DNA of 64,000 nt from Escherichia coli (GCF_003018255.1 NZ_CP027440.1), one strand, 5' to 3'. Shown: positions 1 to 42,449, counted from the stretch's first letter. The notes: generated from the letters alone by a model not told the origin. Numbers and translations are program-made.

Positions 1-2068
1 GGTTGGTTTTACGTACTGGATCTTCTTTGCCCAGCGCCGCAGGGACGATGGAGAAGGTGTACGAGATCCCATCTTTGGCGTAGGTGAACGGCAGTTTCGC
101 CACCGACGTCAATGAGGCCACGGCGCCTTTGCGATCACGACCGTGCATCGGGTTAGCGCCCGGCGCGAACGGTGTTCCGGCGCGGCGACCGTCCGGCGTG
201 TTCCCGGTTTTCTGACCGTACACCACGTTAGAGGTGATAGTCAGAATCGATTGGGTCGGCACAGCATTGCGATAGGTTGGCAAAGCTTTAATTTTCTTCA
301 TAAAGCGTTCAACCAGATCGCAGGCAATGCTGTCTACGCGCTCGTCGTTGTTGCCATACTGCGGATATTCGCCGTCAATCTCGAAATCCACCGCCAGGCC
401 GTTTTCATCACGGATTGGTTTCACACGAGCATATTTGATGGCAGACAGGGAGTCCGTTGCCACCGACAGGCCCGCGATGCCGCACGCCATGGTGCGATAG
501 ACATCACGATCATGTAGCGCCATCAGCGAAGCTTCGTAGCTGTACTTGTCGTGCATGTAGTGAATGATATTCAGCGCGCTGATGTACTGTACCGCCAGCC
601 AGTCCATGAAGTGGTCGAGGCTATCCATCACTTTGTCGTAGTCCAGCACGTCATCCATCAACGGAGCCGTTTTCGGGCCAACCTGAATCTTCAGCTTCTC
701 GTCCATTCCGCCGTTGATTGCGTATAGTAGCGTTTTCGCCAGGTTAGCGCGCGCACCGAAGAACTGCATCTGCTTACCAATCACCATTGGGCTGACGCAA
801 CAGGCAATCGCGTAATCGTCGCTATTGAAGTCAGTACGCATCAGATCGTCGTTTTCATACTGCAAAGAGGATGTGACGATAGACACCTGCGCGGCATATT
901 TTTTGAAGGCAATCGGCAAGGCTTCCGACCACAGAATAGTCAGGTTAGGTTCCGGTGCAGGCCCCATAGTGTGCAGGGTGTGTAAATAGCGGAAGGAGTT
1001 TTTGGTCACCAGGGTTCGACCGTCCAGCCCCATCCCGCCGATCACTTCCGTCGCCCAGATCGGGTCGCCGGAGAACAGCGAATCAAATTCCGGCGTACGC
1101 AAGAAGCGCACCATACGGATCTTCATGATGAAGTGGTCGATCAGTTCCTGTGCCTGCTGCTCATTGAGTACGCCTGCTTTAAAGTCGCGCTCAATGTAGA
1201 TATCGAGGAACGATGCCGTGCGCCCCAGCGACATCGCGCCGCCGTTCTGTGATTTCACTGCCGCCAGGTAAGCGAAGTAGAGCCACTGCACCGCTTCCTG
1301 TGCATTCTGCGCCGGGCGAGAGATGTCAAAACCGTATTTCGCCGCCATTTCTTGAATCTGCAACAGCGCACGACGATGTTCCGCCAGCTCCTCACGCAGA
1401 CGGATCGTAGCTTCGAGATCTTCGCCTTTTTCCAGACGGGACTGGAGATCGGCAAACTGCAGTTCGCGTTCACGTACCAGATAACTGATGCCGTAAAGCG
1501 CCACGCGGCGATAGTCACCGATGATACGCCCACGACCATAACCATCTGGTAAACCGGTCAGTACACCAGATTTACGGCAGCGCAGCATATCCGGTGAGTA
1601 AACATCAAATACGCCCTGATTATGGGTTTTACGCAGATCGGTAAAGATGTATTCAAATTCGCTGTCCATTTCACGACCATACGCGTGGAATGAACTTCTA
1701 ATCATATTAATGCCGCCGAACGGATGCAGCGCACGCTTTAATGGCGCATCCGTTTGCAGACCCACTATTTTTTCCAGCGGCTGGTCAATATATCCTGCAT
1801 CATGAGCGGTAATTGTGGTGGCAATATTGGTATCGAAATCCAATGGCGCGTGAGTCGCATTTTCGATACGGATGCCTTCCATCACTTTTTCCCACAATTC
1901 CGTGGTGGCAGGCGTCGCTTCGGCGAGAAAAGATTCATCACCTTCATACGGTGTATAGTTATGTTGAATAAAATCGCGGACATTAATTTCGTTTTTCCAG
2001 TCCGTACCTTTAAAGCCAAGCCATGCGTCGGCGTACAGCTTATCGCTGGTATCAATATCTACCTTCAT
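1..2068 (-). CDS. tdcE: 2-ketobutyrate/pyruvate formate-lyase (glycyl radical enzyme); N-terminal part only, 3' end lies beyond window start
   Basis: Reverse complement from 2068 reads ATG AAG GTA GAT ATT GAT ACC AGC GAT AAG ([10 protein letters not shown]...), open to the window edge; sits upstream of tdcD in the tdc operon order. Confidence 0.88.
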
Positions 2069-40333: not shown

Positions 40334-40486
40334 GAGGGCTTCTCTCCAGTGAAAAATAGTGCGACTGCGTTGTTATGCATTGCACTGTACCAGTACACGA
40401 GTACAAAAGACAGAAAAAAAGCCCCGATGGTAAAAATCGGGGCTGTATATATTATTTTACAGATTGTGTTCGCTGTTCAGCGATGA

Positions 40487-42376
40487 TTACGCATCACCAC
40501 CGAAACGACGACGACCGGTAGAGTCATCACGACGCGGAGCGCGGCCTTCACGACGTTCGCCGCTAAAACGACGACCATCACCACGACCACCTTCACGGCG
40601 TTCACCGCTGAAGTTACGACCGCCTTCACGACGTTCGCCACTGAAACCACGACCACCGCCACGACGCTCACCGCCAGTATGCGGCTGTGCATCGCCCAGT
40701 AACTGCATGTTCATCGGCTTGTTGAGAATGCGAGTGCGTGTAAAGTGTTGCAGCACTTCACCCGGCATACCTTTCGGCAGTTCGATGGTGGAGTGAGAAG
40801 CAAACAGCTTGATGTTACCAATGTAACGGCTGCTGATGTCGCCTTCGTTAGCAATCGCACCAACGATATGACGAACTTCAACACCATCATCGCGGCCCAC
40901 TTCAATGCGGTACAGCTGCATATCGCCAACATCACGACGTTCACGACGCGGACGATCTTCACGGTCACCACGCGGGCCACGGTCGTTACGATCGCGCGGA
41001 CCACGGTCATCACGGTCACGGAATTCACGTTTCGGACGCATCGGCGCATCTGGCGGAACAATCAGAGTACGTTCACCCTGTGCCATTTTCAGCAGTGCGG
41101 CGGCCAGAGTTTCGAGATCCAGCTCTTCACCTTCTGCCGTCGGCTGAATTTTGCTCAGCAGTGCACGGTATTGATCCAGATCGCTGCTTTCCAGCTGCTG
41201 CTGTACTTTAGCGGCGAATTTTTCCAGACGACGTTTGCCCAGCAGTTCTGCGTTCGGCAGTTCAACTTCCGGAATGGTCAGCTTCATGGTGCGTTCAATG
41301 TTACGCAGCAGACGACGCTCACGGTTCTCAACGAACAGCAGCGCACGGCCAGCACGGCCCGCACGACCAGTACGACCGATACGGTGAACGTAAGACTCAG
41401 AATCCATCGGGATATCGTAGTTAACTACCAGGCTGATACGCTCAACGTCCAGGCCACGGGCCGCAACGTCGGTCGCAATCAGGATGTCCAGACGACCATC
41501 TTTCAGTCGTTCCAGTGTCTGCTCACGCAGCGCCTGGTTCATGTCACCGTTCAGCGCGGCGCTGTTGTAGCCGTTACGCTCAAGGGCTTCTGCCACTTCC
41601 AGAGTCGCGTTTTTGGTACGAACGAAGATAATCGCCGCATCAAAATCTTCCGCTTCCAGGAAACGTACCAGTGCTTCGTTTTTACGCATACCCCAGACAG
41701 TCCAGTAGCTCTGGCTGATGTCAGGACGGGTAGTCACGCTGGACTGAATGCGCACTTCCTGCGGCTCTTTCATAAAGCGGCGGGTAATGCGACGAATCGC
41801 TTCCGGCATGGTTGCAGAGAACAGAGCGGTCTGATGACCTTCCGGGATCTGCGCCATAATAGTTTCAACGTCTTCGATGAAGCCCATGCGCAGCATTTCG
41901 TCAGCTTCATCCAGAACCAGACCGCTCAGTTTAGAAAGGTCCAGAGTGCCACGTTTCAGGTGATCCAGCAGACGGCCCGGAGTACCGACAACGATCTGCG
42001 GCCCCTGACGCAGGGCGCGTAATTGCACGTCATAACGCTGGCCGCCGTACAGGGCAACCACGTTTACGCCGCGCATGTGTTTAGAGAAATCCGTCATTGC
42101 CTCAGCAACCTGTACCGCCAGTTCGCGGGTCGGTGCCAACACCAGAATCTGTGGTGCTTTCAGCTCAGGATCAAGATTCTGCAGCAGAGGTAAAGAGAAT
42201 GCTGCAGTTTTTCCGCTCCCCGTCTGGGCCATACCCAGAACGTCGCGGCCATTCAGCAGATGTGGAATACACTCTGCCTGAATTGGAGATGGTTTTTCGT
42301 AACCCAGATCGTTAAGGGCTTCAAGGATAGGAGCCTTCAGGCCCAGATCTGCAAAAGTGGTTTCGAATTCAGCCAT
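40487..42376 (-). CDS. deaD: cold-shock DEAD-box RNA helicase
   Basis: ORF track 40487..42442; ATG at 42376 gives [33 protein letters not shown]; DEAD motif; RGG/GERREG-rich C-terminus. Confidence 0.93.
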
Positions 42377-42449
42377 GTAGTACGTGTGCCTCAAAATTAA
42401 TGGCGGCCAGTCTACATAACTCATCATGAAATTGATCAGCAATTTTCAT
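42369..42449 (-). CDS. yrbN: 26-codon small ORF overlapping the deaD start
   Basis: Read directly: ATG AAA ATT GCT GAT CAA TTT CAT GAT GAG TTA TGT AGA CTG GCC GCC ATT AAT TTT GAG GCA CAC GTA CTA CAT GGC TGA; stop overlaps the deaD ATG; name recalled from K-12 annotation. Confidence 0.55.

Follow-up and report, generated by a model that had tools for sequence, protein, structure and literature searches.

The peptide-repeat tail encoded at the 3′ end of Escherichia coli deaD and its natural length alleles

The deaD locus and its C-terminal tail

The deaD (csdA) gene, whose product is a cold-shock RNA helicase, is among the best-studied helicase genes of E. coli. We analyzed its 3′ end within a 64,000-nucleotide stretch of DNA (hereafter "the window"), which derives from a non-K-12 E. 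coli and shares 98.8% identity with MG1655 in a 321-nt comparison. Based on the open reading frame, its translation, and Pfam matches, the deaD coding sequence spans positions 40487-42376 on the minus strand (629 aa plus stop, with the stop codon at 40487-40489). The gene order is nlpI-yrbN-deaD-mtr, with nlpI and the 26-codon yrbN located upstream of deaD and mtr downstream, and a strong intrinsic terminator (40420-40444, minus strand), consisting of a 9-bp stem followed by a T run, lies 3′ of the stop codon. The gene product is a DeaD/CsdA-type DEAD-box RNA helicase: it matches the Pfam families DEAD, Helicase_C, DeaD_dimer, DbpA, and DeaD_C, all five above their curated cut-offs, and its residues 6-210 and 218-445 match the PDB entries 5gju and 5gi4, both named "ATP-dependent RNA helicase DeaD". 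The gene is annotated in 5425 of the 5426 complete E. coli genomes.

The tail comprises residues 568-629 (40490-40675, minus strand) and is delimited by its composition and by a match to DeaD_C (PF12343) that spans the full profile (positions 1-62 of 62) with a score of 45.7 bits (cut-off 23.3), in agreement with the original prediction, which had assigned the region to the C-terminal tail of DeaD. Directly upstream, the DbpA-type RNA-binding domain (residues 489-558, PF03880) is encoded at 40703-40912 on the minus strand, and it is almost unchanged across 100 Enterobacterales sequences. The interval 40487-40700 takes in the stop codon, the tail, and the last few residues past the RNA-binding domain. 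Residue 579 is a serine in the DeaD of the window and a glycine in K-12. A full-length DeaD protein search, in which the best 120 matches all came from E. coli or Salmonella, returned homologues that all carry a precomputed DeaD_C assignment. The tail is a direct match to this family, without any difference, and is an already known and ordinary feature. By itself, finding it is of little significance, as the curated family is already described in Pfam (PF12343) as "DeaD helicase C-terminal disordered region"; the present analysis adds a description of the units and a count of the length alleles.

Among the 62 tail residues are 19 arginines and 19 glycines (31% each), and together with glutamate (11%) they make up 73% of the tail, which has a net charge of about +8. 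Codon usage is similarly narrow, with CGT used for 17 of the 19 arginines, GGT or GGC for glycine, and GAA for glutamate. An AlphaFold2 model covering residues 481-629, obtained with a 100-species alignment, gave residues 563-629 a pLDDT below 50 (39-46 per 10-residue block) and no secondary structure, and the DbpA-type RNA-binding domain folds in the same model with a pLDDT of 64-77. We did not find a solved structure of the tail in the PDB, which holds only the two DeaD segments named above, and from the model the tail is predicted to be an intrinsically disordered region.

Within the tail, imperfect DNA repeats encode units of the GERREGGR type, on which Tandem Repeats Finder (TRF), the repeat families, and the codon reading agree. 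TRF recovered a period of 33 at 40580-40674 (2.9 copies, 74% matches, score 120). A 44-nt repeat family is present at 40544, 40589, and 40622 with 75-89% identity, a 19-nt family occurs with spacings of 63, 45, and 33, and the peptide FSGERREG is found three times without change. The tail thus consists of a degenerate leading unit, three units that open with FSGERREG, and the partial start of another, all encoded on the minus strand. According to the codon table, the degenerate unit 1 (residues 568-577) occupies 40646-40675. The repeat families and the codon table together place unit 2 (residues 578-588, 33 bp) at 40613-40645, unit 3 (residues 589-603, 45 bp) at 40568-40612, and unit 4 with its extension (residues 604-624, 63 bp) at 40505-40567. 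The terminal FGGDA (residues 625-629, 40490-40504) is the start of a truncated unit, supported by a family copy at 40494-40512. Since the spacers differ, the unit period is 33, then 45, then 63 bp. The predicted existence of GERREGGR-type repeats was therefore confirmed, and the unit length of roughly 30-33 bp given with it agrees with the TRF period, but the real spacings are not uniform. Similarly, the repeats are real, but where about 70 final codons had been described as repetitive, clear repeats are confined to about 44 (codons 568-611).

Length alleles and their repeat boundaries

A comparison of the DeaD C-terminus across the complete E. coli genomes recovered the tail in 5425 of 5426 and revealed four tail length alleles, every one of which is in frame (multiples of 3 bp). 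Together, these alleles account for about 3.3% of the genomes, and about 97% keep the dominant length of 629 aa. The census was compiled from among the matches listed, so further rare alleles may exist; six genomes matched a 214-nt tail query yet not a 101-nt query.

The most frequent variant is a +12 bp allele (633 aa) formed by tandem duplication of GTCGTGAAGGYG (REGG), which is present in 158 of the 5426 genomes (2.9%) as counted with a junction-specific 42-nt query, for which non-carriers offer no seed. The 12-bp segment GTCGTGAAGGCG (REGG) that is tandemly doubled in this allele lies at 40621-40632 (minus strand) in the window. Five sampled carriers, including strain 042, were only 0-1 SNP apart in deaD and shared their Mtr and NlpI proteins as well as a distinct gene content past mtr. 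The near-identical deaD and shared flanking proteins of these carriers indicate that the +12 bp allele goes back to one event in one lineage.

The second allele, with a deletion of 78 bp (603 aa), was found in at least 21 genomes. The deletion removes exactly units 2 and 3 and lies between the two copies of an 18-bp exact direct repeat, GGCGAACGTCGTGAAGGC on the coding strand, which is the longest exact repeat in the tail. Copy A (40622-40639, minus strand) forms one end of the deletion, and copy B (40544-40561, minus strand) is located 78 bp from it. Four sampled carriers were 15-39 SNPs apart in deaD and 36-166 SNPs apart over 5.1 kb, a divergence equal to that of unrelated strains, and one SNP lies 14 bp from the junction. 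As the deletion is thus found on divergent haplotypes, the -78 bp allele is most likely recurrent, having arisen several times from separate origins.

The remaining two alleles were each found in a single genome. In strain 124611, a +15 bp allele (634 aa) is a perfect tandem duplication of TGGCGGTGAGCGTCG (GGERR), and in strain FXCREC035, a -132 bp allele (585 aa) is a deletion between two octamers of the sequence GCGTCGTG, the upstream end of which lies at 40660-40667 (minus strand) and its partner at 40528-40535. The +15, +12, and -132 bp events have repeats of 8-12 bp at their ends. Database proteins furthermore include singletons whose tails are 5 aa shorter or 34 aa longer in E. coli and changed by +1, +2, +21, +22, and +26 aa in Salmonella. 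Of these, the +26 aa form of Salmonella corresponds to the reciprocal product of the -78 bp deletion.

As a control, we sampled 60 rows evenly down the ranking for the other 1676 bp of deaD and found the standard length in 59 of them. The weakest match of this sample, isolate F1053, carries a -24 bp allele (621 aa) that has lost one copy of the other deaD repeat, which is located in the R/D linker before the RNA-binding domain. Indels in deaD are therefore concentrated in its two low-complexity repeats, which supports slippage-proneness. DeaD lengths of 585, 603, 621, 629, 633, and 634 aa are real alleles rather than sequencing errors, and the forms of 646 and 651 aa reflect start-codon miscalls, that is, annotation choices and not sequencing errors. 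The earlier suggestions that the repeats are prone to slippage and that tail length may vary between strains were thus both borne out, with the qualification that the variation is rare, modest, and always in frame.

Judging from the alignments, the location of the indel ends in repeats and the apparently independent recurrence of the -78 bp deletion mark the tail as a slippage-prone direct repeat. The tail still contains exact direct repeats of 8-18 bp at distances of 12-132 bp, which would occasionally permit slipped-strand mispairing or unequal recombination and thereby the in-frame duplication or deletion of whole or partial units. Such events could have generated the rare E. coli alleles, of which the +4 aa form belongs to a single lineage, the -26 aa form appears to have arisen repeatedly, and the +5 and -44 aa forms occur in one genome each. 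We infer slippage from the indel endpoints; RecA-dependent unequal exchange would leave similar footprints, as would short-patch recombination spreading a single -78 bp event. Indel frequency seems to track repeat length, with the 18-bp repeat giving the recurrent allele. In these respects, the tail resembles deletion hotspots of the lacI type, where indels likewise end in short exact direct repeats (8-18 bp and 12-132 bp apart in the deaD tail). As at classic slippage hotspots, deletions are accompanied by reciprocal duplications, and the longest repeat is associated with the recurrent event. A literature search on in-frame deletions of deaD in evolution experiments returned nothing relevant.

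That 629 aa prevails in E. coli as well as in Salmonella implies either that the length is under stabilizing selection or that the events are rare. It is conceivable, although improbable, that the tail repeats serve as an evolutionary tuning knob, with length alleles that alter RNA tethering or the condensate threshold and are selected by niche; if so, selection might act on growth in the cold, the rate of ribosome assembly, or persistence under antibiotics. The alternative is that the alleles are neutral products of slippage. There are two candidates for such tuning: the -26 aa form recurs in clinical lineages, and the +4 aa form has become fixed in the lineage to which strain 042 belongs.

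We regard it as very unlikely that the tail is a contingency locus, in which hypermutable repeats have been selected for frequent switching of tail length or for on/off switching of DeaD. The existence of several length alleles, the multiple origins of the -78 bp deletion, and the reciprocal duplications in Salmonella and E. coli would fit such a role, as would the link between DeaD condensates and persistence (PMC12758526). However, all four alleles are multiples of 3 bp and allow no on/off frameshifting, exactly 629 aa are kept in about 97% of the 5426 genomes and in Salmonella, and the common +12 bp allele arose once and was then inherited. The DNA copies have also diverged at synonymous sites, and the longest exact repeat of 18 bp is no more than the peptide and its codon bias predict (see below). 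In view of the frame, the frequency of the variants, and the conserved length in Salmonella, the DeaD tail is not a phase-variation locus, and occasional slippage or unequal recombination between the remaining direct repeats stays our preferred explanation of the alleles.

Peptide pattern, codon bias, and open antisense frames

The repeat in the tail exceeds what its composition would produce. The best ungapped self-match of the tail had a score of 34, compared to 9.0 ± 1.4 in mononucleotide shuffles and 19.0 ± 3.7 in codon shuffles, and a score of 34 was reached in none of 500 and 2 of 500 shuffles, respectively. Since even codon shuffles rarely reach the observed value, the tail contains a tandem DNA repeat above chance given composition. 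A different result was obtained when the protein was kept fixed and synonymous codons were redrawn according to the codon usage of either the whole gene or the tail itself. These redraws scored 32.6-36.8 and reached 34 in 207-378 of 500 cases, and their longest exact repeat was 15.2-18.2 nt vs. 18 nt observed; taking both measures (score 34 and the 18-nt exact repeat), 117-378 of 500 redraws reached the observed values. Thus, this protein-fixed test detected no DNA similarity between units beyond that given by peptide and codon usage, and nothing in the allele of the window points to recent duplication or gene conversion. As the redraws match the observed score, the DNA repeat is fully explained by a repeated peptide that is encoded with strongly biased codons.

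This raises the question of whether there is a true repeat at all, or whether the periodicity is a by-product of arginine, glycine, and glutamate richness and codon bias in a low-complexity tail. The extreme composition described above and the mean self-match of already 19 in codon shuffles point in this direction, as does the lag identity over the last 240 nt, which is only modestly raised at 33 nt (0.45) and 66 nt (0.44) vs. about 0.35. At the peptide level, however, the self-match obtained in just 2 of 500 codon shuffles refutes this explanation, and the threefold exact FSGERREG, the TRF score of 120, the matching units at orthologous positions in Salmonella, the unit consensus recoverable in 100 species, and the gain or loss of whole units in natural indels all speak against it, leaving it extremely unlikely. 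Instead, an 11-residue unit, F-(S/G)-G-E-R-R-E-G-G-R-x, would have given rise to the tail through ancient tandem duplications. Selection would now keep the peptide pattern while the DNA copies differ at synonymous sites, so that these copies may be alike only as far as the shared peptide and the strong codon bias (CGT, GGT, GAA) require.

The same codon composition explains a feature of the opposite strand, where two of the three plus-strand frames are stop-free across the tail: the antisense codons of CGT, GGT, GAA, and TTC cannot make stops in two frames. An antisense ORF of 110 aa (40464-40796, plus strand), which is rich in proline, arginine, and serine and begins with TTG, is an artefact of this composition, and an out-of-frame ORF of 71 aa on the deaD strand (40477-40692, minus strand) is likewise an artefact. 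No Pfam match was found for the antisense ORFs over the tail. Between E. coli and Salmonella, codons 561-629 contain 27 differences, distributed 5/2/20 over positions 1/2/3 of the deaD codons, and the rest of the gene shows 12/4/124. This accumulation at third positions indicates that only the deaD frame is under selection. The prediction that stop-free frames opposite the tail inflate antisense ORFs proved correct. That 40464-40796 encodes a real overlapping antisense protein for which the repeats are kept is hardly credible, as the ORF, although open in E. coli and Salmonella alike, belongs to no Pfam family, starts with TTG, owes its openness to the codon composition of the tail, overlies the deaD stop codon just upstream of the terminator (40420-40444), and faces a substitution pattern with 20 of 27 tail differences at deaD third positions. 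Gene callers should therefore disregard both the antisense and the out-of-frame ORFs over the deaD tail.

Conservation, relatives, and proposed role of the tail

Salmonella DeaD also has 629 aa and the unit layout of E. coli, and 58 of the 62 tail residues are identical between the two. Among identical residues, identical codons are used at 45 of 58 positions in the tail and 431 of 551 in the rest of the protein (about 78% each). Unit 2 shows no differences between the two species over 24 nt, and units 2 and 3 of Salmonella have a common 23-bp exact repeat, although this comparison, made with regard to concerted evolution, involves few sites. To extend the comparison to other Enterobacterales, deaD was located in species-representative genomes by a degenerate DNA pattern for a 10-residue motif. 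In all 119 genomes, the tail was present (R 29%, G 26%, E 11%), with a length of 58-102 aa counted from the upstream motif (median 83, E. coli 78) and 0-5 GERR[EG] units. Fresh duplications are visible in the tails of Serratia oryzae (52-bp exact repeat) and Rahnella inusitata (32-bp exact repeat). Among 150 more distant representatives of 50%-identity clusters, 135 carry a basic tail with a median length of 46 aa behind the RNA-binding domain, and there is no sequence conservation among these distant tails. Distant DeaD-type tails often bear repeats of their own. Taken together, these comparisons show that the character of the tail is conserved and its sequence lineage-specific, and that its length changes in evolution as units are gained or lost; over longer times, indels of the kind seen in E. 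coli would change the unit number between genera.

The DeaD tail shares its arginine- and glycine-rich, disordered nature and its position on a DEAD-box core with the RGG/RG boxes in the tails of Ded1/DDX3, LAF-1, and Dbp2, and by analogy both would be expected to bind RNA non-specifically and to favor condensates. In contrast to RGG boxes, however, the DeaD tail is built from GERREGGR units, glutamates and phenylalanines recur in it at regular positions, and its net charge comes to only about +8 over 64 residues. RGG/RG motifs, which Thandapani et al. reportedly defined in 2013 as a minimum of two RGG or three RG with 0-4 residues between them, were searched for in the tail, which contains one RGG and neither a tri-RGG, a di-RGG, nor a tri-RG; a single di-RG is formed by RGGGRG (residues 572-577). 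The "RGG" label originally given to the tail is hence apt as a loose description of its arginine and glycine content, but the tail is not a canonical RGG box. Eukaryotic RGG boxes are typically methylated at arginine, a modification that is not expected in E. coli.

Closer counterparts are the tails of RhlE, SrmB, and the Pseudomonas proteins RhlE1 and RhlE2, which are likewise variable, basic, and fast-evolving disordered C-terminal regions. Unlike the tails of RhlE and SrmB, the DeaD tail follows folded dimerization and DbpA-type domains and has a unit of its own. Its sequence is also dissimilar to the tails of the distant representatives. The disordered tails of bacterial DEAD-box proteins tune RNA binding, unwinding, and phase separation (PMC11260450; PMC1616957), and C-terminal extensions have been proposed to act as a secondary RNA-binding site (PMC1616957). 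In line with this literature, the basic and flexible tail of DeaD may provide a sequence-nonspecific secondary surface for RNA binding or tethering and for annealing beside the DbpA-type domain. It is probably the seat of the ATP-independent annealing activity of CsdA, for which the basic C-terminal domain has been named as the likely location (PMC3590231). As DeaD forms foci (PMC7414142) and undergoes phase separation in vitro (PMC12758526), the tail may also contribute to these foci and to liquid-like condensates. In the accessible literature, we found no experiment that assigns RNA binding, annealing, or condensates specifically to residues 568-629, and none that deletes these residues alone. 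The C-terminal regions of CsdA are said to be needed for RNA binding and function (Xu et al. in Structure, 2017), and a C-terminally truncated CsdA reportedly supports growth only at milder cold (Turner et al. in the Journal of Bacteriology, 2007).

Overall, we consider it very probable that a single account, namely a peptide-repeat tail at the 3′ end of deaD/csdA that undergoes slippage indels and has a putative RNA-binding role, explains these observations jointly. The tail itself was known before, and the catalogue of its natural length alleles is the sole, mildly new item. The natural alleles lacking 26 or 44 tail residues are material for testing the part of the tail in RNA binding, cold growth, and condensates.

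Reading frames at and opposite deaD

The start of deaD (40487-42376, minus strand) overlaps by 8 nt with yrbN, a 26-codon ORF on the minus strand at 42369-42449 that is present in the RefSeq annotation and matches Pfam YrbN. In the mechanical ORF list, deaD is lengthened through an added stretch (42377-42442) to a TTG at 42442, giving a protein of 651 aa. Upstream starts of this kind are used in many database DeaD entries, with lengths of 651 aa in E. coli and 646 aa in Salmonella; these lengths are annotation choices and not alleles. The ORF list also contains a 425-aa antisense ORF on the plus strand (40745-42022) that covers most of deaD. Its frame has just 3 stops over 1890 nt and the ORF had no match in Pfam; it looks like a shadow ORF arising from the codon bias of deaD.

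Length variation outside the tail

The linker that joins the dimerisation domain of DeaD to its RNA-binding domain holds a second low-complexity repeat, at residues about 453-480 (minus strand, 40937-41019; 30 protein letters, not shown). Within this repeat, the repeat search identified a 24-nt direct repeat (40971-40994 and 40995-41018, minus strand). Exactly one 8-residue copy of the linker repeat is gone from the 621-aa DeaD of E. coli isolate F1053 (one genome), and a Salmonella DeaD protein (P0110) is missing 3 residues at the same site. Five database DeaD proteins (P0001-P0005, 656-829 aa) contain a large tandem duplication that lies within the protein but not in the tail, the duplicated stretch being 27-200 residues from the helicase core, the dimerisation domain or the RNA-binding domain. 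Each duplication is seen on a single contig, and they may be real or assembly artefacts. No part of deaD was matched in one of the 5426 complete E. coli genomes. A single extra copy of the deaD region in this genome collection is found on a plasmid record.

Tail-length alleles and tail repeat units

The E. coli lineage with 12 bp added to deaD (L012-L016, including strains 042 and 118UI) encodes an L,D-transpeptidase past mtr together with a hypothetical protein, whereas the sampled carriers of the 78-bp deletion (L008-L011) have yhbW in their place. Within the tail, codon 579 (40640-40642) encodes serine (AGT) here vs. glycine (GGT) in K-12 and most sampled strains, and Ser579 thus renders all three FSGERREG units identical in this sequence. 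Exact DNA repeats are found in the deaD tails of two other Enterobacterales species, Serratia oryzae (52 bp, 42 bp apart) and Rahnella inusitata (32 bp, 63 bp apart). These tail duplications are very recent, and both tails would be far likelier to undergo slippage than that of E. coli.
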